Part shown: positions 2,875 through 59,766 of the stretch, one piece after another
How positions within the stretch are numbered: position 1 is the first letter of the stretch
Layout: each line of letters starts with the position of its first letter
From: an uncultured bacterium
GTDB lineage: Bacteria; Schekmanbacteria; GWA2-38-11; J061
Assembly: GCA_964549305.1 (NCBI GenBank)
Contig: CAZJVM010000001.1
Coordinates: 5,217 to 69,216 of the forward strand
Length of the DNA stretch: 64,000 nucleotides
Direction of reading: 5' to 3'
Notes under the pieces: model-generated
What the model saw: the letters and a program-made list of their open reading frames with translations, nothing else
What the model was told of the DNA's origin: nothing
Database searches by the model: none
Position numbers and translations under genes: made by a program

Positions 2875-3744
2875 CTAATGAATTTGATTGATGTAATCTT
2901 CAATGAGACTGCGGTTTTCAGGAGATATTCTCGAGATGTTTATCCCGGTTGAGTATTTTATTACATCACCTTCGGGAACCTCTATGCATCTGCACACCTT
3001 TCCGTCAATGTAAATGACTTTGTCGTTAATCATGAGATTTACTCCAACGTGGTCATTGGGTTTCAACGGATAAATATGCCGAAGAAGAAGTCCGCTGAGA
3101 CTTATATCCGTTACTTCCGCTTTTTCCTTGTTTTCTTCCATATTTTCCTTGTTTAGACTGTTGCAGTAAGCAAAGGTATTTACGCTGTAACGGGGATAAC
3201 GTCTTTTTTCGAGATATGAGTGTGTCATGGAAATCAATTCCATAAACCTGTCGGGAGAATTGATGGAAAGAAAACCGTCGATGAATGCACTGTTTTTAAG
3301 AAGATTGTTCCAGTAAAGATTCAGTTTTTCTTTTTCAACATCATTCTTTCCGTCTTTTTGAAAAGCTTCCACCGAGTGAAATAACATTACACAGATAACT
3401 TTAATGCCCGCACTTCCCTCGATACCCAAATCAATCTTTTTCTTTAAACGACCAATGAAAAGAAGTGAGTTAGAAATGTAAAGAAAAGGGCAGTAATTAA
3501 TAGTAAAGGGAAAAACTCCGTTCTTCAGGAAGTCTGACGCGTCCCTGAGAAGCGATTCCTTCATCTTTCCCCATTGTTTGGAAAGAAGCGCGAATTCTCT
3601 TCTCGCTGCCTGAGAGTTGCATACTTTATCAGATGATGAAAGCTTGCCTGATATTTCGAGGAATAAGTCTTTTATATTGTCTGACTCAAGATCAAGGTCG
3701 ACAATATCGGGGAGATACTCTTTGAATTCCTCTTTTATAGCCAT
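2875..3744 (-). CDS. PilZ-domain (c-di-GMP binding) protein with an uncharacterised N-terminal domain
   Basis: The C-terminal region carries both PilZ signature motifs: RxxxR (EKRRYPRYSV) and D/NxSxxG (DISLSGLLL). The N-terminal ~190 aa have no motif I recognise. Confidence 0.55.
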   Translation of the reverse strand: MAIKEEFKEYLPDIVDLDLESDNIKDLFLEISGKLSSSDKVCNSQAARREFALLSKQWGKMKESLLRDASDFLKNGVFPFTINYCPFLYISNSLLFIGRLKKKIDLGIEGSAGIKVICVMLFHSVEAFQKDGKNDVEKEKLNLYWNNLLKNSAFIDGFLSINSPDRFMELISMTHSYLEKRRYPRYSVNTFAYCNSLNKENMEENKEKAEVTDISLSGLLLRHIYPLKPNDHVGVNLMINDKVIYIDGKVCRCIEVPEGDVIKYSTGINISRISPENRSLIEDYINQIH

Positions 3745-11469: not shown

Positions 11470-13833
11470 TTATATGGACAAATGATGTCCTGATTCCATG
11501 AAGAAATTATTGACGACTTCAGTAAGGTCCAGGATATTGAAAGGTTTGGGCAGACAAGTGCTCTTTGTCTCTTCTATAAATTTTTTTGTTTTTGGGTCAT
11601 AAGTGTCGCCCGTCGTAAAAATCACCTTTTTCTCGATACCGTTTTTCTTGCTCCGCAGGGTGTTATATAGGGTAAATCCGTCGACTCCGGGCATTCTCAG
11701 GTCTGATATTATCAGGTCGTAAGAGTCATTGTTGATTTTATCAAGGGCAGTTTTTCCGTTGTCTGCCGATTCCACTTGATGATTTTTATTCAATATGGAT
11801 ATCATAAGCTCTCTAATCATTGTATCATCGTCGATAACGAGAATTCTTTTCCTGTCATTCGTTTGATCGGTTGTTTCTTTTCTCGGTGTTTTATCTTCTC
11901 CTGCTTCCGGAACTTCCAAGAGGGGTAACTTGATTGTAAATTCAGTTTTGCTGAAAGGTGTGCTTTCCACGTGTATTGTGCCTTTATGGTTGTTGATGAT
12001 GCCGTAACATACGCTCAAGCCGAGCCCGGTGCCGATAGAAGGCTCTTTCGTGGTAAAAAAAGGATCGAAAATTCTCTTCAGGTTCTTTTCCTGTATGCCC
12101 GGTCCGTTATCGCTTATTGTGAGCAGTACGTGTCCGCCCTTATTTACCGAAGTAACGGATATTGTTCCTTCGCTTCCCATCAATGACTGAAAAGCGTTGT
12201 TAATCATATTGATTATTACCTGTTCGACCTGTGTTTCGTCTGCCATTGTGTTTGGCAGGTTATCACACAAGTCGACTGTAAGATTAATGTCACTTGTGTC
12301 AATCTTGTATTTGAAAAGCTTTGTCACTCTTGTAACTATTTCATTTATATTGACTGATTTAAACTGCGGTTTATTATGCCTCGCGAAACCGAGAAGAGAA
12401 TGAATGATATTTTTCGCCCCTTTTGCGCTCAATTCGATTTTTGAAATCATTTCAGACAAGTCGCCGCTTACGTTCATTTCATTAATAATCTGCGCATATC
12501 CTAAAATAGGAGCAAGTTTATTGTTGAGCTCGTGCGTAATTCCGGAAATCATTCCGCCGAGAGACGCGAGTTTCTCAGAATGTAAAAGCTGTTCTTCAAG
12601 CTTCTTTCTTTCGGTTATATCTTTTATAAGAAGGACATTGCCAATAATAGGATTTCCGCTTTTGTCCCGCGGTACGGAGAGGGAAACGAGCACAGGGAAT
12701 GATTTTCCTTTTTTATTCAAAAGGTTTTCTTCAATGCTTCGAATTGTTATATTGTCATCTCCGGACAACCTTTTTCTGAGTAAGCTTGCTTCGTTTCCGT
12801 TGCTTGCCGATGTGTCCGTGTTTTTTCCGTTTCCCTTTTCGGGGAGTATCATAAAAATACTTTTGCCGATAGCTTCAGCAGAGGAGTAACCGAATATATT
12901 TTCTGCTCCCTTATTCCAGTAAATGATTGAATTGTCGGAATTTGCCGTTACAACGGCATCATCGAGACTTTCTATTGTTGATTCTATATAATCGCGCAGA
13001 TAGTCAATAAGCTCGTCTCTTTGTTGTTGAACTGAAATGTCCTTCAGCATCAGGGCAAATCCCTCTACTTCCGCTGACTTGGAATGGATAATCGAAGATC
13101 TCAATTCAACAGGCACAATATCTCCGCTTCGCACTTTTAGCTTGATTTTAACGGGGAGAGAAACCTCTTTTCTTTTTATGAAAAAGAAGTTTTTTGCGAA
13201 TTCTTCAGGGCTGTCGTTTGTAAGAATGCTCAGGTGTTTTCTCAAAATCTCCGCGGGATTGTATCCCGTAAGATTCTTTGAATAATCGTTTGCAAACTGT
13301 ATAACGCCAGAATTGTCTATAATGAGAAAAGCTTCCGGGAATTTAGAGATGATTTCTTCGTACTTGTCAATATGGTATTCGCCGCCTTCCTCTGCCAAAT
13401 CAGCTTTCTTTGATACTGTTTTTTTCTGTTGATGCCTTGATTTTGGAACACTATTAAGCTCTTTGATTTTTTTAATATTCTTGAGGTCAAAACAGATACT
13501 TGTTTTACCGTCTTTTCCAGATGCTTTTTTTGAATAACAGATAAAGTTAAGCTCTACAAGACTGCCGTCTTCGAGCATTCGCTGACTTTGTATGATTTTC
13601 TCTTCATCTGTTTTTAAAATCGAGTTTTTTGCTTCAATGAAATTATTGAATATTTTTTCCGGAATAAGAGGCAGGTAAGAATAGAGAATATCCTCTTTCT
13701 CATAACCGAAGATGCCTTCCGCTAAATCCGACCATCTGGTTACTTTTCCGGAAATGTCGATTTCAAGAAGAAACTTATTATTCTTTAAATTCTTCTCAAT
13801 TTCATTTATTAATGAAGTTTTCATTGGCGTCAA
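11470..13833 (-). CDS. Hybrid sensor histidine kinase (multiple PAS domains, HisKA, HATPase_c, C-terminal receiver)
   Basis: PAS-like repeats come first. The HisKA H-box is ITHELNNKLAPILGYAQI and the HATPase G-boxes are DNGPGI...GTGLGL. The C-terminal receiver carries conserved Asp residues (LVIDDD...ISDLRMPG). Confidence 0.85.
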   Translation of the reverse strand: MTPMKTSLINEIEKNLKNNKFLLEIDISGKVTRWSDLAEGIFGYEKEDILYSYLPLIPEKIFNNFIEAKNSILKTDEEKIIQSQRMLEDGSLVELNFICYSKKASGKDGKTSICFDLKNIKKIKELNSVPKSRHQQKKTVSKKADLAEEGGEYHIDKYEEIISKFPEAFLIIDNSGVIQFANDYSKNLTGYNPAEILRKHLSILTNDSPEEFAKNFFFIKRKEVSLPVKIKLKVRSGDIVPVELRSSIIHSKSAEVEGFALMLKDISVQQQRDELIDYLRDYIESTIESLDDAVVTANSDNSIIYWNKGAENIFGYSSAEAIGKSIFMILPEKGNGKNTDTSASNGNEASLLRKRLSGDDNITIRSIEENLLNKKGKSFPVLVSLSVPRDKSGNPIIGNVLLIKDITERKKLEEQLLHSEKLASLGGMISGITHELNNKLAPILGYAQIINEMNVSGDLSEMISKIELSAKGAKNIIHSLLGFARHNKPQFKSVNINEIVTRVTKLFKYKIDTSDINLTVDLCDNLPNTMADETQVEQVIINMINNAFQSLMGSEGTISVTSVNKGGHVLLTISDNGPGIQEKNLKRIFDPFFTTKEPSIGTGLGLSVCYGIINNHKGTIHVESTPFSKTEFTIKLPLLEVPEAGEDKTPRKETTDQTNDRKRILVIDDDTMIRELMISILNKNHQVESADNGKTALDKINNDSYDLIISDLRMPGVDGFTLYNTLRSKKNGIEKKVIFTTGDTYDPKTKKFIEETKSTCLPKPFNILDLTEVVNNFFMESGHHLSI

Positions 13834-15492: not shown

Positions 15493-15508
15493 TGGCATAT
15501 TTCTTGCT
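15493..15508 (+). promoter_or_regulatory. Candidate sigma-54 (-24/-12) promoter upstream of flhG-fliA
   Basis: TGGCATatttcTTGCT matches TGGCAC-N5-TTGCW, with GG and GC at canonical spacing. It lies about 37 nt upstream of the flhG start and immediately downstream of a sigma-54 activator gene. Confidence 0.5.
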
Positions 15509-15544: not shown

Positions 15545-16390
15545 TTGCTTAAAAATATGCCATCAAAAAAGATAATCAGTATTACAAGCGGAAAAGGAGG
15601 AGTCGGGAAAAGTACGCTTGTTTTTAACATTGCGTTGTCACTTAATAAACAGGGCGCCAATGTACTTGTTCTTGACGCGGATCTTTCCCTTGGAAATATG
15701 GACCTCTTTGCAGGAGTTAAACCTCTTTTTACGCTAAAAGATGTTTTTGATGGAAACAGAAGTCTTGATGATGTGGTAATAGAGGTTAAAAAGGGGTTGA
15801 AAATTATCCCCACTTCCTCCGGAGATGAAACACTTTGCAATCTTTCGGACAAGCAGGAGATAAATCTTGTTTCCGCTTTTGATAACCTGAAATCATCCTT
15901 TGATATTCTTCTCATAGATACGGATGCGGGTATCTCCGCAAATGTAATATATTTTTCGACAATATCTCAGGAAATTGTTCTTGTCATAACTCCTGATCCG
16001 GCATCGCTTCATGATTCTCTCGCGCTGATTAACCTTCTTTCGAATAAGTACGGAGAAAAATCTTTTAATGTCGTTGTTAACTGTGTGCGCACCAAAGAGG
16101 AGATGGGAAGCGTTTTTTCATCTTTCAGCAATATGGTGGACAAGGAAAACTGCAACGTGCGCCTGAACTATATGGGGGCTGTTCATTTTGACAATAAAAT
16201 GGTCGAGGCCGTCAAAAAACAATCGGCGGTGAGTGAGCTTTATCCCAAGTCCTTGTCGTCAAAAGATATTAAAAAAATCGCCGCAACGATAATGGCAATG
16301 CCTTCACAACCATTTCCAAAGGGAAATGTGCAGATTTTACTCGGAGATTTTTTGGAGCAAAGCAGAAACAAGGAAAAATATAACCTTTAA
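15545..16390 (+). CDS. flhG: MinD/ParA-family ATPase, FlhG (FleN)-like flagellar number regulator
   Basis: Deviant Walker A (SGKGGVGKST). A MinD-like protein immediately upstream of fliA, as in flhF-flhG-fliA loci. Confidence 0.7.
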   Translation: MLKNMPSKKIISITSGKGGVGKSTLVFNIALSLNKQGANVLVLDADLSLGNMDLFAGVKPLFTLKDVFDGNRSLDDVVIEVKKGLKIIPTSSGDETLCNLSDKQEINLVSAFDNLKSSFDILLIDTDAGISANVIYFSTISQEIVLVITPDPASLHDSLALINLLSNKYGEKSFNVVVNCVRTKEEMGSVFSSFSNMVDKENCNVRLNYMGAVHFDNKMVEAVKKQSAVSELYPKSLSSKDIKKIAATIMAMPSQPFPKGNVQILLGDFLEQSRNKEKYNL

Positions 16391-16405: not shown

Positions 16406-17218
16406 ATGAAAAAAGTTATTTTAAAAAGGAAGTCGCGACGCAAAACGCTTAACAGTAAATTAGTAAACAGAGAAGAATTAATCGTTCAGTATTTGCCGCT
16501 AACGCGCTCGATTGCGGAAAGAATATCCACGAGACTCCCTAATAATGTTGAAATCGACGAGCTTGTTGCAGCCGGCATAATGGGATTGATGGATGCGGCA
16601 GACAAGTTTGACCCTTCCAAGCAGATTAAATTCAAAACATACGCCGAATTCAGGATAAGGGGCGCCATACTTGACGAACTGCGCGCGATGGACTGGCTTC
16701 CCAGGTCCCTGAGAAGAAAAACTTCCCAAATTGACAATGCCCGTTTCACTTTAGAACAGCAATTGGGGAGACACGCTACGGATAAAGAGGTCGCGGAGCA
16801 TATGAACATAGACATCGAAGAATTATATGATATGATAAACAGCGTAAAAGGAAAATCTCTTCTTTCTCTGGATGAACCGATAGACGGAGATTCAAAAAGC
16901 AGAACACTTCTTGAATGCCTTGTAAGCAAAGATTCTCAGGACCCGCATTCACTTGCAAGCTTAAAAGAAATGAAGGAGATGATAGCAAAGGCAATTGACC
17001 TTCTTCCGGAAAAGGAAAGGCTTGTAATTTCGCTTTACTACTATGAAGAACTGACTATGAAAGAAATAGGGCAGATTATGAATGTTACGGAGTCAAGAGT
17101 GTCACAGATTCACACAAAAGCCGCGATGTCGCTAAAATCGAAGCTTAAAAAAGTATCAAAAGAAAAATCGGTTCCTTCTTTTAAAACAACTGAATCCGCT
17201 TTCGGGAATTCAATATAA
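16406..17218 (+). CDS. fliA: RNA polymerase sigma factor sigma-28 (FliA/WhiG family)
   Basis: Sigma-70 region 2 (YAEFRIRGAILDELR), region 3 and region 4 (ISLYYYEELTMKEIGQIMNVTESRVSQIH) are present. Length is 270 aa. Confidence 0.85.
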   Translation: MKKVILKRKSRRKTLNSKLVNREELIVQYLPLTRSIAERISTRLPNNVEIDELVAAGIMGLMDAADKFDPSKQIKFKTYAEFRIRGAILDELRAMDWLPRSLRRKTSQIDNARFTLEQQLGRHATDKEVAEHMNIDIEELYDMINSVKGKSLLSLDEPIDGDSKSRTLLECLVSKDSQDPHSLASLKEMKEMIAKAIDLLPEKERLVISLYYYEELTMKEIGQIMNVTESRVSQIHTKAAMSLKSKLKKVSKEKSVPSFKTTESAFGNSI

Positions 17219-17224
17219 CAGATT

Positions 17225-17914
17225 ATGAGCGAACAAGATAAAAAAAAGGACATCCTTTTAAACATTCATCATACCTTTCTTTTGGGAAAAATCACAGGAG
17301 ATTTATTCCACGAAATCAATAATATGGTGGGGGCGTCAATTGGTTTTGCGCAACTTGCAAAAATGAGTATGGGCGAAGATGATGTGAATAAACTCATCGA
17401 TGTTGTTTTAAACTCCACGGAAAAAATCAAGGAAATAAGCAAATCCGCGCAGACCTACCTCAGTTATTCAAACAATAACGGGTCGCTTGTGGATATTTCA
17501 GATGTACTCTGCCACTGCGTTACATTGTCAAGAAAAAGCCTGATAAAACGGGGAATTAAAATATCTGATTGTGACAAAAAACTCATAGCTTTTCAAACCG
17601 ATGTAAGGACCTTGAAGCATGCCATTTTAAGTTTTATTTCCTTCATTACGGAGAATAACGAAATCGGCGGCACTCTTGATTTGAAAGCGGAAAAAATTAA
17701 TGAAACCCAGGTTAAGATTGAATTTTTTAAAGATGATTTATGCGTTGAAAAAATTAATGAAATTATACGCGATTTTGACAACCTGGATTTTATGGAAAAT
17801 TTGGAAAATGACTGTTATATGGCATTGTATTTGATTCAAAAAGTATTGGGCGCTTCCACGGAAATTTCAAAGTCAACCTTTTCATTTATCATTGACGAAA
17901 TCGTTTCCCAATAG
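17225..17914 (+). CDS. Degenerate histidine-kinase-like protein (HisKA-like H-box, ATP-binding boxes eroded); hypothetical regulator
   Basis: H-box-like segment (FHEINNMVGASIGFAQLA) and a partial N-box-like stretch (LKHAILSFISFITENN). No DxGxG or GxGxG G-boxes. It sits between fliA and flgM, 6 nt after the fliA stop. Confidence 0.45.
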   Translation: MSEQDKKKDILLNIHHTFLLGKITGDLFHEINNMVGASIGFAQLAKMSMGEDDVNKLIDVVLNSTEKIKEISKSAQTYLSYSNNNGSLVDISDVLCHCVTLSRKSLIKRGIKISDCDKKLIAFQTDVRTLKHAILSFISFITENNEIGGTLDLKAEKINETQVKIEFFKDDLCVEKINEIIRDFDNLDFMENLENDCYMALYLIQKVLGASTEISKSTFSFIIDEIVSQ

Positions 17915-18082
17915 AACCTTTCTTTTTCATTCCCTTATGTTTACTGTTTTGCGATATCCTTATAAATCAAAAGCGTAGCTGAACGCGTCGAGTCACTATG
18001 TCAACGGGATGTTATTCCGTCTAAAGTAGCAGCAAAAATATGACGAGGAATAGCTATTCTTTAAAGAGGTAAATCCTTAAAA

Positions 18083-18310
18083 ATGAAAAAGAATAGAGAT
18101 TCCCTCGAAGCAGTTAAGAAAATGCTTCCCTTTGTTGAAAACGACAGAGAAAGAGAAGAAAGAGTCCTGTATATTAAAAGTCTTGTTGAGAAAGGTAAAT
18201 ACAAATCCAATTCCGGTAAAATTGCCCAAAAAGTTATAAATGACCAGCTTGTTGATGAATATATGATGTTTTTACCCATCCTTATGTATCTCGCAAAAGA
18301 ATGTAAATAA
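18083..18310 (+). CDS. flgM: Anti-sigma-28 factor FlgM-like
   Basis: 75 aa. The C-terminal segment IKSLVEKGKYKSNSGKIAQKVINDQL matches the conserved FlgM sigma-28-binding helix (consensus roughly AIxxGxYxVDxxKIAdKLL). It is adjacent to fliA. Confidence 0.55.
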   Translation: MKKNRDSLEAVKKMLPFVENDREREERVLYIKSLVEKGKYKSNSGKIAQKVINDQLVDEYMMFLPILMYLAKECK

Positions 18311-20843: not shown

Positions 20844-21158
20844 ATGAATTACGCGGGAGGTATTCTTTTTATGAATGTTCAGTGCCATTTTTGTAAAAAG
20901 AAAATTTCAGTCGAAGGCAGAGTGTCAAGGAGTGAAACCTGTCCGGAATGTGGTTATGATATCCACTGCTGTATGAACTGCCGTTTTTACGATGAGTCAA
21001 AACATAATAAATGCAGTGACCCTCAGGCAGAGTGGGTATCAGACAGGGAGAGGCGGAACTACTGCGATTATTTTGAAATCAATCCTGCATCAGAGGGAGC
21101 GGATAAAGGCGAAAAGGAAAATGCGCGGGAAAAAGCGGAATCGCTTTTTAAAAAATAG
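20844..21158 (+). CDS. Small cysteine-rich zinc-ribbon protein, hypothetical
   Basis: Three CxxC pairs (CHFCKK, CPECGY, CMNCRF) plus CDYF, then an acidic/lysine-rich tail. The start may be the internal Met (MNVQCHFC). Confidence 0.4.
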   Translation: MNYAGGILFMNVQCHFCKKKISVEGRVSRSETCPECGYDIHCCMNCRFYDESKHNKCSDPQAEWVSDRERRNYCDYFEINPASEGADKGEKENAREKAESLFKK

Positions 21159-21277: not shown

Positions 21278-21718
21278 TTGGTTGAAATTTCTAAGGAAGA
21301 AGAAGAAAAGATTCGTCAAAAGATCAGAGCTGAGCTTGAAGAGGAGGAAAAAGAACGCCTCGAAAGACTGAAACATTTAAACTATTTGAATGAAAAGGAA
21401 GATCAGGAAGAAGATAAAGTTGATGAAACGAAACTTTTGGAATTAAAGAAAATTGAAATAATAGAAAATGAGAAAGTCGCGTTCTATAAAGAAAAAGGTT
21501 ATATTCCCGTAAAGACAAGATCAGGAAAAACCAAATGGATATCCAAAGAGGAGTATAACGAAAAGAAACATAAAATCCGCGTAAAGCGAAGGCGCAACGG
21601 CAAGGATTTAAATCCTGTGGAAAAACCCGGCCAAAAGAACCTCAAATCGATTTTTATCATTATTCTTATATTTGTTCTTTTTTCAATATTTATATCTCTT
21701 GTGTCTTCAATATTTTAA
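21278..21718 (+). CDS. Hypothetical tail-anchored protein (highly charged coiled-coil region + C-terminal TM helix)
   Basis: An E/K-rich heptad-like region is followed by SIFIIILIFVLFSIFISLVSSIF as the final ~23 residues. Confidence 0.4.
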   Translation: MVEISKEEEEKIRQKIRAELEEEEKERLERLKHLNYLNEKEDQEEDKVDETKLLELKKIEIIENEKVAFYKEKGYIPVKTRSGKTKWISKEEYNEKKHKIRVKRRRNGKDLNPVEKPGQKNLKSIFIIILIFVLFSIFISLVSSIF

Positions 21719-56978: not shown

Positions 56979-57341
56979 AAAGAATGAAGTTTATGGCAAC
57001 AGAGTATAATGACTGAAAGTGCAAGTTGTCAATAATCATAAAAATAAAAACCGGGCAAACAATTTGTAGCTTATAAAAGCATCAGAGGGTGTCAGGAAGA
57101 AAGCATATTCTATATCAATCATTTGTTGCTCACAGCGACGATAAATGGTTTGTAAATACAGCAGGTTAGCTATCATTGCTATGTCCTTTAAATGATTGTT
57201 TGCTATGCTATCTAATTGATTTATCAATAAATAAATTGTTTTTTCGCGGTAAAAAAAATATTTTATTGGATATGAGATTAAAGGTTTTTAAGGAAAGTGG
57301 CGACAATATATGGTATAAATGCTGCTAATGGGGGAGGTGGC

Positions 57342-57788
57342 ATGAAAAAAATATCGCTTAAAAAATCTGAAGACGCGTTTACACTTGTAGAAATTCTTGT
57401 TGCCATAGTAATCCTTTCTGTAGGACTTCTCTCAATAGCAAGTTTGGTTACAACTGTTATCAGGGGTAACGCAAAGAGCAGGCGAATGACTACGGCAATA
57501 ACTCTTGCGCAAACGAAAATAGAAGAGTTGAAAAATCTGGATTATGACGATAGCAAACTCGAAGATTCAAATACGGGCAACAATTCAAGCCTTACAAGCA
57601 CATCATCCACTGACCACAGCGAAGCGGATATAGACGCGGAAGGGGGAACAGGGGGAATTTATACGAGAATATGGAATGTTGCCGATGACACTCCTTCAAC
57701 GAATATGAAAACTATTACGGTTATCATAAAGTGGGAAGAAAAGGGCAAGGAAAGAAAGACTGCGTTTACAACTATAATATCGGAATGA
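57342..57788 (+). CDS. pilV: Type IV pilus minor pilin, PilV-like (prepilin-type N-terminal domain)
   Basis: MKKISLKKSEDA|FTLVEILVAIVILSVGLLSIASL: class III signal with Glu at +5, PilV-like (compare Pseudomonas PilV ...GFSMIEVLVALLVLAIGVLGLASL). A strong GGGGGAGG Shine-Dalgarno lies upstream. Ala rather than Gly at -1 is atypical. Confidence 0.6.
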   Translation: MKKISLKKSEDAFTLVEILVAIVILSVGLLSIASLVTTVIRGNAKSRRMTTAITLAQTKIEELKNLDYDDSKLEDSNTGNNSSLTSTSSTDHSEADIDAEGGTGGIYTRIWNVADDTPSTNMKTITVIIKWEEKGKERKTAFTTIISE

Positions 57789-57797
57789 GGATGAAAA

Positions 57798-58703
57798 GTG
57801 CGCGTGAAAAATAACAGGAATGGATTTACGCTTATAGAGTTGATGGTGTCGATACTTCTCGCATCTATACTTATGGTTACATTTTATACTCTTCTTACCA
57901 GTCAGCAGAGAACATACAACAGTCAGGATTTGATTGTTGAAATGCAGCAAAATGTGAGGACGGCAATGGATACTTTGACGAGGGAATTCAGGTCAATCGG
58001 ATACGGAGTGCCTACTGCCGACACCCCTTCGGAAATTGCCGTTATAAGCAGCGCGACGGAAAACACCATAACCTTTCTCGTTGACCTTGATAATGTGAAG
58101 GCGACACTTACTGCCGACTACACGGCAGGAAATACTACTCTTTCCGTTGACACGGTGTCGGAGACATCTTCCGACAGTTATTATGGCAATTTTTCCGCAG
58201 GTGATACAATATATATAACTGACGGAAGCAAGTGGGAAGCCACTGACGTGTCATCTACTTCCCAGGGGAGTTTGGGTATCGGGGCTTTAACCAATGATTT
58301 TTCCCAGGGGTCGGTGCTTCACGTAATCAACACAATTACGTATGCCCAGAATCCATCCGACCACAAACATTCGACTGATGCGCCAACCATTAAATTGACG
58401 CGGTCTGTTGACGGAAGCACGGCACAACCGGTAGTCGATGACATTGATTATCTTGAATTCAAATACTATGATGATTCGGACAGTCAGGTCGGTTCAGCGA
58501 CTCCATACAAGAGTGTAAGTTTATCTTCCGGTGATGTAGGCGACGTAAGGAAAATAAAAGTTCTTTTTATCGCGCGAACATCGAGAGAAGATCCAAGCTA
58601 CTCGAGTTCCGGGGTCTATAACTGCGGCGACAAATACAGCGACCAATATCACAGATTAACACTGGAATCGGAAATAAAATTAAGAAATGCAGGATTGGAA
58701 TGA
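57798..58703 (+). CDS. pilW: Type IV pilus minor pilin, PilW-like
   Basis: MRVKNNRNG|FTLIELMVSILLASILMV is a canonical prepilin leader and methylation motif. PilW-like length (301 aa) and position after pilV. GTG start. Confidence 0.65.
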   Translation: MRVKNNRNGFTLIELMVSILLASILMVTFYTLLTSQQRTYNSQDLIVEMQQNVRTAMDTLTREFRSIGYGVPTADTPSEIAVISSATENTITFLVDLDNVKATLTADYTAGNTTLSVDTVSETSSDSYYGNFSAGDTIYITDGSKWEATDVSSTSQGSLGIGALTNDFSQGSVLHVINTITYAQNPSDHKHSTDAPTIKLTRSVDGSTAQPVVDDIDYLEFKYYDDSDSQVGSATPYKSVSLSSGDVGDVRKIKVLFIARTSREDPSYSSSGVYNCGDKYSDQYHRLTLESEIKLRNAGLE

Positions 58704-58704
58704 T

Positions 58705-59766
58705 ATGAAAAATAACAAAATGTTAAGCAATGAGTCGGGATTTGTCCTTGCACTTGCAATGTTTCTTCTTGCTATTCTCACTGTGATCGGTCTCGGCGCG
58801 ATTTTGATTACATCGACAGAGCTTAAGATATCGGGGAATCTCAGAACTGCTACCGATGCCCTGTATGTGGCAGAGGGAGGTATGGAAATTACTGAAGGAA
58901 AATTGAAGGCAAACGCAGTGAGCAATTTTGCAGGAACAAGCGGGACAACAAGCAATACGCAGATTTATGTCGTAGGAAAATCACCTAAAAACACCATTAA
59001 AAATCCTTTAAACTGGGTTGACACAAGCTGGTATATAGATTCGGATATGACCACGCCCCTGTCCGAGGGCAATGCGGAAACCGTGACTGCTCTTTATAAC
59101 AAATATACTATTGGTTCCGGGGAAGCCAATATTACACTGCCAAGACCTCAGTGGTTGTGGGTAAATCCCACGATTGTGGCGTTCAGAAACGTCAGGTCCA
59201 CATTCTCGGGAACAAATGCCAAAAAAGTGGAAGCGGATATTGAAATAAGATTTGAAAATAATCTCCTTTCCTTTCAGGTGTTCAAAGACCCTTCTGACGG
59301 TGTATCCGATGTTGACAATATTTCCAACAACAATGTTATAATAGGAGGTACAGGTTATGATTTTGGAATCGATCCTGCATTAAGCAAGATTACGGGAATT
59401 TGCACGAACGATAACAGTACGAAAGCTATTATAATTTATAGGGATGGGGACAACAATTTAGCGACTTCAGACTGGACAATAGTCGGAGAACCGGAGATTA
59501 ACACGACTAACAGTACATTTTGCCTCAGCAATGCGAGAGGTTACAGATATACAGCTTTGGGTGGTGCCGGGTCAAAAGAACCGGTAGCGGTTTTAAGCGC
59601 AAGCGAATATATTCCCGATACTACGGGCGCGCCTGTTTTGTCAATCAGTAACGGGGAAATTTACAAGGTTGAACTTGTCGATATATCTATGCTTTCACGA
59701 AGTGCCGGAAATCCGGCGGGTTCATCGGCAGGAAGCTGGGTGTCGAATACTTATAATCAATGGTAA
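58705..59766 (+). CDS. pilX: Type IV pilus minor pilin, PilX-like (PilX_N domain)
   Basis: ESGFVLALAMFLLAILTVIGLGAILITSTELKISGN matches the PilX N-terminal domain consensus (QRGxALxVALxxLLxLTLLGxxAxxxxxLxExMAGN). The start was moved to the ATG after the pilW stop. Confidence 0.6.
   Translation: MKNNKMLSNESGFVLALAMFLLAILTVIGLGAILITSTELKISGNLRTATDALYVAEGGMEITEGKLKANAVSNFAGTSGTTSNTQIYVVGKSPKNTIKNPLNWVDTSWYIDSDMTTPLSEGNAETVTALYNKYTIGSGEANITLPRPQWLWVNPTIVAFRNVRSTFSGTNAKKVEADIEIRFENNLLSFQVFKDPSDGVSDVDNISNNNVIIGGTGYDFGIDPALSKITGICTNDNSTKAIIIYRDGDNNLATSDWTIVGEPEINTTNSTFCLSNARGYRYTALGGAGSKEPVAVLSASEYIPDTTGAPVLSISNGEIYKVELVDISMLSRSAGNPAGSSAGSWVSNTYNQW

Follow-up and report, generated by a model that had tools for sequence, protein, structure and literature searches.

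The stretch of contig CAZJVM010000001.1 analysed here, 64,000 nucleotides (nt) long and referred to as the window, carries directly after a fliA gene an open reading frame (ORF), named X in what follows, whose product is a degenerate histidine kinase. X is clearly a homologue of class I histidine kinases (HisKA + HATPase_c) and, judging by the motifs that it has lost, it is predicted to be unable to bind ATP or to autophosphorylate. We tentatively favour the reading that X is a ChpT/Spo0B/PhyT-like histidine phosphotransferase linking the REC domain of a neighbouring hybrid kinase to the sigma-54-dependent regulator encoded beside it, and our confidence in this reading falls just short of even. 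The gene and the parts of its product lie as follows.

17225 to 17914, forward strand: X, soluble degenerate histidine kinase of 229 amino acids (aa), with an ATG start
17225 to 17464, forward strand: DHp-like helical hairpin of X, residues 1-80, with helices modelled by AlphaFold2 (AF2) at residues 3-48 and 51-80
Residues 28-45 of X, forward strand: H-box FHEINNMVGASIGFAQLA, with the His29 codon CAC at 17309-17311
17483 to 17896, forward strand: CA-like alpha/beta (Bergerat-fold) domain of X, residues 87-224, without the N-box Asn, G1 and G2 and with a shortened lid

X starts 6 nt after the fliA stop at 17218 and is separated by a 168-nt spacer from a FlgM-like ORF at 18083-18310, in agreement with the initial annotation, which had placed a 229-aa ORF at 17225-17914 just past fliA and before flgM. 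The product had also been called cytoplasmic, and indeed no transmembrane segment was found in it, the highest 19-residue Kyte-Doolittle mean being 0.98. The protein has no proline at all (count = 0). The Pro that usually follows the His of the H-box is missing, with Gly36 at His+7, and the neighbouring hybrid kinase reads 'HELNNKLAP' where X is without Pro.

The kinase ancestry of X was seen with profile, alignment and structural searches. Pfam HisKA gives 14.3 bits on X (E 0.043), below its cut-off of 26.9, and the family member P0008 exceeds that cut-off (29.4 vs 26.9 bits). A five-member X profile run against 1.84 billion representative proteins returned 2176 matches at E<=1e-3, nearly all of them ordinary sensor kinases, which cover profile positions ~5-170 with a best E of 1e-17. 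Furthermore, hhalign of a seven-member X alignment against 40 active kinases of the 'HEFNNL..GYAQLA' HisKA subfamily gave a probability of 100% and an E of 1.6e-41 over 228 columns. The PDB profile match of X is ThkA (3a0r), and in this match as well as with MAFFT and hhalign H29 aligns to the phospho-acceptor His of kinase H-boxes.

On the structural side, AF2 modelled full-length X as a two-helix hairpin plus an alpha/beta domain with a predicted local distance difference test score (pLDDT) of 76.6, and the C-terminal domain by itself with a pLDDT of 86.8 and a predicted template modelling (TM) score of 0.85. Foldseek matched the full-length model to the cytoplasmic cores of the kinases ZraS, HK853 and ThkA and to the pseudokinases RetS and DivL; with the C-terminal domain the best match was the ThkA CA domain at a TM score of 0.72-0.74, and ZraS, HK853, RetS and DivL were found again. 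The Bergerat alpha/beta fold is thus retained in the modelled C-terminal domain, and the structure prediction that had been put forward as a check yields kinase cores and CA domains as matches. The 'HEFNNL..GYAQLA' subfamily also holds many active kinases and several further motif-poor lineages, and on the alignments X is best described as a product of independent degeneration within it.

The retained and the lost motifs are found in different parts of the protein. Eleven positions of helix 1 (H29, E30, N32, N33, G36, A37, G40, F41, A42, Q43 and A45) are invariant in the seven-sequence X alignment, one member of which is just 26% identical. The H-box that had been recognised from the sequence is hence a sound assignment, its residues 28-45 aligning to kinase H-boxes with HExxN invariant. 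At the position of the N-box 'NA' Asn, which serves Mg-ATP binding, the family varies between F, S, C, A and D, and the first N of the box aligns to Ser136 of X. The 'partial N-box' reported earlier is therefore half right, since the homologous helix is present and the catalytic Asn is absent. G1 'DxGxGI' aligns to 'FFKDD--L', where two residues are deleted and no Gly is conserved, and G2 'GTGLGL' aligns to 'LENDCY'; a regular-expression screen of X for a G2-type GxGxG was negative. These assignments were the same with MAFFT and hhalign. In the MAFFT alignment with neighbouring kinases the ATP lid is ~11 residues shorter in four of the five X-family sequences. The initial annotation had read X as a kinase-derived pseudo-enzyme without G1 and G2, and had set beforehand, as the test that could refute this, a more sensitive alignment for hidden intact G-boxes; none was revealed by either program. 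Given that the ATP-binding motifs are lost, kinase activity of X is unlikely.

Between X of the window and X of locus L017, identity reaches 52% in helix 1 against 26% in the CA-like domain, which therefore points to selection on the His and on the REC-docking helix. Moreover, the ORF is intact across identities of 26-69% and helix 1 is strongly conserved, and for these reasons X is probably under purifying selection.

The X family is small. It consists of five 90%-identity clusters among 5.8 billion and of four 50%-identity clusters among 1.84 billion representatives, from Schekmanbacteria-like metagenome-assembled genomes. One Candidatus Schekmanbacteria member is called 'sensor histidine kinase' by NCBI, an automatic label that is wrong for the X family. 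A distant branch, 26-30% identical, is formed by P0008 (in L005) and the L017 protein. A metagenome scan for X gained only L016 and L017, and the sole match of the genome-contig scan, L004, was rejected as an orthologue, being a distant ordinary REC-GAF kinase with intact boxes. At L016 584-1211 a P0005-type X is split into ORFs of 112 aa and 102 aa by an internal deletion or frameshift, the 3' piece being the database 'protein' P0007; the split may stem from misassembly or mark a disrupted allele. Among the motif-poor matches, P0009 and P0033 lie on contigs of ~1.3-1.7 kb and P0119 adjoins a cytochrome oxidase subunit gene, and none of the three has usable context. The ORF fragment upstream of P0009 (L013 2-145) is a nearly pure poly-Asp run.

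The genes around X, with the promoter-like elements among them, are the following.

11470 to 13833, reverse strand: hybrid sensor kinase, divergently oriented, with PAS repeats, HisKA, HATPase_c and a C-terminal REC and without an HPt (Pfam)
11470 to 11850, reverse strand: REC domain of the hybrid kinase, with beta4 'IFTTGDTYD', conserved in L017
13922 to 15304, forward strand: sigma-54-dependent response regulator, with REC, AAA+ sigma-54 activator and Fis-type helix-turn-helix domains (Pfam)
15493 to 15507, forward strand: sigma-54 promoter-like element TGGCATATTTCTTGC (-24/-12), conserved form TGGCATAnTnnTTGC, 38 nt upstream of the flhG-like ORF
15545 to 16390, forward strand: MinD/FlhG-like P-loop ATPase (Pfam ParA/AAA_31/CbiA; NCBIfam MinD below cut-off)
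16406 to 17218, forward strand: FliA/WhiG-family sigma-28 factor (TIGR02479 FliA_WhiG 273 bits, cut-off 189.6; Pfam sigma-70 r2, r3 and r4)
18021 to 18046, forward strand: sigma-28-type promoter-like element CTAAAGT-N16-CGA, 37 nt upstream of flgM
18083 to 18310, forward strand: FlgM-like anti-sigma-28 factor, 75 aa (Pfam FlgM 27.4 bits, cut-off 25)

The DHp-CA-REC part of the hybrid kinase aligns end to end with NCBIfam CckA models at 189-200 bits, below their cut-off. Its 'IFTTGDTYD' is loosely like the CckA 'FxSGY'/FATGUY motif of intermediary REC domains, with one extra residue (PMC9981736). The regulator scores 241.6 bits with Sigma54_activat and 97.1 bits with Response_reg; its best NCBIfam models are of the NtrC/AtoC type, flagellar FlbD and FlgR as well as LuxO match too, and all of these are below cut-off. 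The TIGR03824 match of the FlgM-like ORF is also below cut-off, and an FlgM-like gene is seen in L002 and L016 too.

The gene order common to L001-L003 is mfd, the hybrid PAS kinase on the opposite strand, the sigma-54 regulator, the MinD/FlhG-like ATPase, fliA, X, flgM and gshA. X lies directly downstream of fliA in six loci (the window, L001, L002, L003, L005 and L017). The hybrid kinase is syntenic in L001, L002 and L017 and the regulator in L001-L003 and L017, so that hybrid kinase, regulator, fliA and X are found together in all four loci that reach far enough upstream. L017, a 158-kb metagenome contig, retains mfd, hybrid kinase, regulator, fliA, X and gshAB, and at this locus both the flhG-like gene and the flgM ORF are absent (L017 6677-7090 and 8693-8933). 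Since fliA-X persists there without flhG and flgM, adjacency of X to flgM is not essential. Co-occurrence with fliA/flgM, a check proposed earlier, holds for fliA and fails for flgM at L017: the invariant core is hybrid kinase, sigma-54 regulator, fliA and X, not fliA-X-flgM. Identities between the window and L017 are 42% for the kinase, 62% for the regulator, 55% for FliA, 50% for GshA and 30% for X, so that within the cluster X evolves fastest.

A scan of all ORFs of at least 100-110 aa and of those around the locus turned up no HPt domain. No flagellar structural gene was found within the window, and because of this the target regulon of the FliA/WhiG-type sigma factor is uncertain. Housekeeping genes (mfd, gshA/gshB and a UvrD-like helicase) lie on either side of the regulator cluster. 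Elsewhere in the window there are type IV pilin-like genes at 57297-59766, a PilZ-domain protein at 2875-3744 on the reverse strand and, on the forward strand, two proteins without a Pfam match, one of 104 aa that is Cys-rich with several CxxC pairs (20844-21158) and one of 146 aa that is highly charged with a C-terminal hydrophobic tail (21278-21718).

The spacers of the locus give a view of its transcription. An exact TGGCAY-N5-TTGC occurs at a single site in the window (15493-15507) where 0.11 are expected. The element is present in five of five loci (the window, L001 6242-6256, L002 6234-6248, L003 1763-1777 and L017 6988-7002), always in the same place and as the only conserved block of otherwise diverged spacers; at L017 it stands directly before fliA. 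The sigma-28 consensus is TAAA-N15-GCCGATAA, which CTAAAGT-N16-CGA resembles. The latter is unique in the window, with 0.07 expected, and recurs with identical spacing at L002 8937-8962, before flgM, and at L003 4281-4306, downstream of X, in spacers that are otherwise unalignable. This points to flgM as a separate transcript made with FliA, and to X as the probable last gene of a sigma-54-driven (flhG)-fliA-X unit. X had been described as inserted between fliA and flgM, an imprecise description, since it would end the sigma-54 unit while flgM has its own sigma-28-type element. From the same spacers, the adjacent regulator would drive the sigma-54 promoter of (flhG)-fliA-X, and FliA would then drive flgM.

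The role that we propose is built on these neighbours. X would be an ATP-blind dimer derived from a class I histidine kinase, with a DHp hairpin that bears the phospho-acceptor His29 and with a pseudo-catalytic domain. The divergent PAS hybrid kinase would autophosphorylate and pass the phosphoryl group to its own C-terminal REC, from which it would go to His29 of X and then to the REC of the adjacent sigma-54-dependent regulator, the dimeric state of X, its partners and the direction of flow being part of the proposal. The activated regulator would fire the sigma-54 promoter of (flhG)-fliA-X and so produce sigma-28, which would act on the sigma-28-type flgM promoter and presumably also on a late regulon. 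As X is encoded in the operon that it would help to activate, the circuit would carry positive feedback.

Three uses of an ATP-blind kinase-derived DHp are documented, as a shuttle (Spo0B, ChpT, PhyT; PMC3433190, PMC5898713), as a phosphatase and as a modulator (RetS, DivL). PhyT, Spo0B and ChpT are degenerate kinases working as phosphotransferases (PMC5898713). ChpT is a protein of ~225 aa having a DHp with His33 and an atypical Bergerat domain; it shows no autophosphorylation and no bound ATP/ADP (PMC3433190), and it passes phosphate from the REC of the PAS hybrid kinase CckA to terminal regulators (PMC3433190, PMC9981736). With these precedents and the linkage of X to an HPt-less hybrid kinase and a sigma-54 regulator, the phosphatase or phosphotransfer role that had been suggested earlier fits the results.

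A shuttle is favoured because the hybrid kinase conserved as partner ends in a REC and carries no HPt, and because no HPt appeared among the ORFs scanned. The alignment of this kinase with CckA models and its loosely CckA-like beta4 speak for it as well, as does the concentration of selection on the His-bearing, REC-docking helix of X. Moreover, the linkage of X, hybrid kinase and regulator is conserved together with the sigma-54 element (5/5 loci), and the LuxU-LuxO relay is a precedent for a relay ending on a sigma-54 regulator.

Several points weigh against this reading. With only about 8 X-family sequences the conservation statistics are thin, and the DHp part of the monomer model has a pLDDT of only 55-67. 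The Pfam families of ChpT, Spo0B and HPt gave no match on X at E<=1, neither ChpT nor Spo0B is among its top 50 Foldseek matches, and by this comparison the analogy with ChpT/Spo0B is architectural only. Many HPt-less hybrid kinases hand phosphate straight to their regulator, the REC serving to control the kinase itself. A relay component placed inside its own target operon needs basal expression. Finally, Asn at His+4 (HExxN) is the phosphatase-determining position in HisKA kinases, and by sequence the Asn that X has there fits a phosphatase equally well.

Indeed, a dedicated phosphatase working through the HExxN of the DHp, with the sigma-54 regulator (or the kinase REC) as its substrate, is nearly as consistent with the results as a shuttle, and we regard it as the chief competing reading, though in itself rather unlikely. 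Made from the regulator's own target operon, it would shut the regulator off after fliA expression, by a logic like that of the antiactivator FleN/FlhG, and the predicted co-transcription of X with flhG-fliA from the conserved sigma-54 element would then give negative feedback. H29, E30 and N33 are invariant and, with the ATP motifs gone, kinase activity is unlikely, as a phosphatase would have it. The HE-x-N-N box is however unchanged from that of active 'HEFNNL...GYAQLA' kinases and so, being simply inherited, gives no sign of phosphatase specialisation, and a phosphatase leaves the constant HPt-less hybrid partner kinase unexplained. PhyT was itself initially taken for a phosphatase but showed no phosphatase activity in vitro (PMC5898713). 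X could also be a pseudokinase modulator that carries no phosphate and tunes the kinase/phosphatase balance, either as a DHp heterodimer with the hybrid kinase in the style of RetS-GacS or as a reader of REC state like DivL with DivK~P and CckA; we consider this improbable. Both the full-length protein and the C-terminal domain have RetS and DivL among their best structural matches, and the H-box region of X is 22% identical to the neighbouring kinase over 101 aa (pairwise E 8e-5). At database-scale thresholds, however, the X profile misses the neighbouring hybrid kinases, which indicates no special relationship, and a recent duplication of the neighbouring kinase was rejected as the origin of X on the same result. 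Furthermore, a pure scaffold would not need strict invariance of His29; DivL has Tyr at the phospho-His position.

The remaining readings bring X closer to sigma-28 or deny it a distinct role. As a direct component of the sigma-28 module, X would bind FliA or FlgM, possibly in a phosphorylation-dependent manner, as an anti- or anti-anti-sigma-like factor; no result speaks directly for such binding, which seems to us very unlikely, and it is just as doubtful that the phospho-His state of X, set by the hybrid kinase, gates FliA/FlgM binding post-translationally, which would make it a new kind of sigma-28 regulator. If X did bind in this way it might replace FlgM where the locus is without flgM, as at L017, which leaves room for another sigma-28 regulator, and the fliA-X adjacency is invariant in six loci. 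GHKL-fold anti-sigma factors do exist (SpoIIAB, RsbW), and a Pseudomonas phosphorelay reaches FlgM via HptB, HsbR and HsbA. On the other side, X matched neither HATPase_c_2 nor other anti-sigma families at E<=1 and the ATP motifs are absent, the domain presumed to bind is the least conserved part of the cluster (26%, vs 55% for FliA), and conservation is centred on the REC-docking helix. The sigma-28/anti-sigma partner switching that had been offered as one option for X finds no support, in view of the same C-terminal divergence, of the lack of a HATPase_c_2 match and of the persistence of fliA-X without flgM in L017. It is hardly credible that X works as a normal kinase through a non-canonical nucleotide site, or that it is the functionless product of a decaying pseudogene: the NCBI label on a homologue and the split copy on L016 would suit this, but X has neither the N-box Asn nor G1 nor G2, its lid is short, and across identities of 26-69% the ORF is intact and helix 1 strongly conserved. 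In light of these results, the observation made in the initial annotation is confirmed and its interpretation partly supported.

Compared with known systems, X as a putative shuttle is closest in architecture to ChpT of Caulobacter/Brucella. Both are soluble proteins of ~225 aa with a His-bearing DHp and a Bergerat domain that in X is predicted to be ATP-blind, and the X locus has an HPt-less hybrid kinase with a REC, syntenic in 4/4 informative loci. Unlike ChpT, X has no PF10090 (HPTransfase) match at E<=1 (P0016, an unrelated short kinase-like protein, scores 22.9 bits to PF10090), in structure its C-terminal domain comes closer to true CA domains, for instance that of ThkA, than to ChpT, it comes from the 'HEFNNL..GYAQLA' HisKA subfamily and its gene is in a fliA operon; furthermore, its presumed acceptor is a sigma-54 activator whereas that of ChpT is the OmpR-type CtrA. 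Bacillus Spo0B differs in that X has no match to SPOB_a / SPOB_ab at E<=1, and in its donor, which is the stand-alone REC Spo0F while the donor REC of X would be kinase-fused. PhyT (formerly PhyP) of Sphingomonas melonis is a degenerate kinase with a conserved His which passes phosphate on to a regulator controlling an alternative sigma factor and which, as X, is encoded at a regulator/sigma locus (PMC5898713). PhyT is anchored in the membrane and belongs to the HWE/HisKA_2 type (HRxxN), X being a soluble protein of the HisKA type, and PhyT feeds PhyR-NepR-EcfG partner switching, of which there is no sign for X.

In Vibrio, HPt-less hybrid kinases signal through LuxU, a small phosphotransfer protein encoded beside the regulator, to LuxO, an NtrC-type sigma-54 regulator; LuxU is a monomeric four-helix-bundle HPt, whereas X is a degenerate kinase. 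HPt proteins in general (PF01627) differ from X, which has no Pfam match to them and is modelled as a two-helix hairpin plus an alpha/beta domain. RetS and DivL share with X a kinase fold with impaired catalysis and regulate other kinases, but they are large multi-domain sensors whereas X comprises just the DHp-plus-CA core and has an invariant His. In the flagellar hierarchy FlrB/FleS/FlgS form two-component systems with the sigma-54 regulators FlrC/FleR/FlgR above fliA; unlike what is proposed for X, those kinases are active and non-hybrid and need no shuttle. Our literature searches found no description of an ATP-blind kinase-like gene in fliA operons of this type nor of a regulator of the X type at fliA loci, in line with the initial annotation, this being an absence of match only.

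Kinase-like proteins that are short and soluble and whose N, G1 and G2 boxes are weak or lacking also form a second clade (P0016, P0018, P0031), seen at L006 8001-10577, L009 1042-3668, L010 2638-5264 and in L007. These proteins are found in flagellar loci with flagellin, CsrA-FliW, FlaG, FliD, FliS, FlgN and two sugar epimerases, and they are always followed by a DUF8042/TP0873_N protein and a conserved 75-76-aa protein that begins with 'MSI[ST]..QIQNIIQTY' and has no Pfam match; identification of the latter as FlgM was rejected by Pfam. A REC-SHOCT and a REC-GAF-HD regulator come next in L006, L009 and L010, where the contig reaches.

ATP-blind kinase relics that act on REC domains are already known, hence the mechanism class of X is not new, and as phosphate shuttles such relics are known from few systems, namely Spo0B, ChpT and PhyT. 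If the phosphotransferase role holds, X would be an independent origin of such a shuttle, from a different HisKA subfamily and in a poorly studied candidate phylum. It would insert a further control step between sensory input and the cascade from sigma-54 to sigma-28 in these bacteria, and the pairing of a hybrid kinase with an ATP-blind kinase relic would be a recurrent phosphorelay solution.

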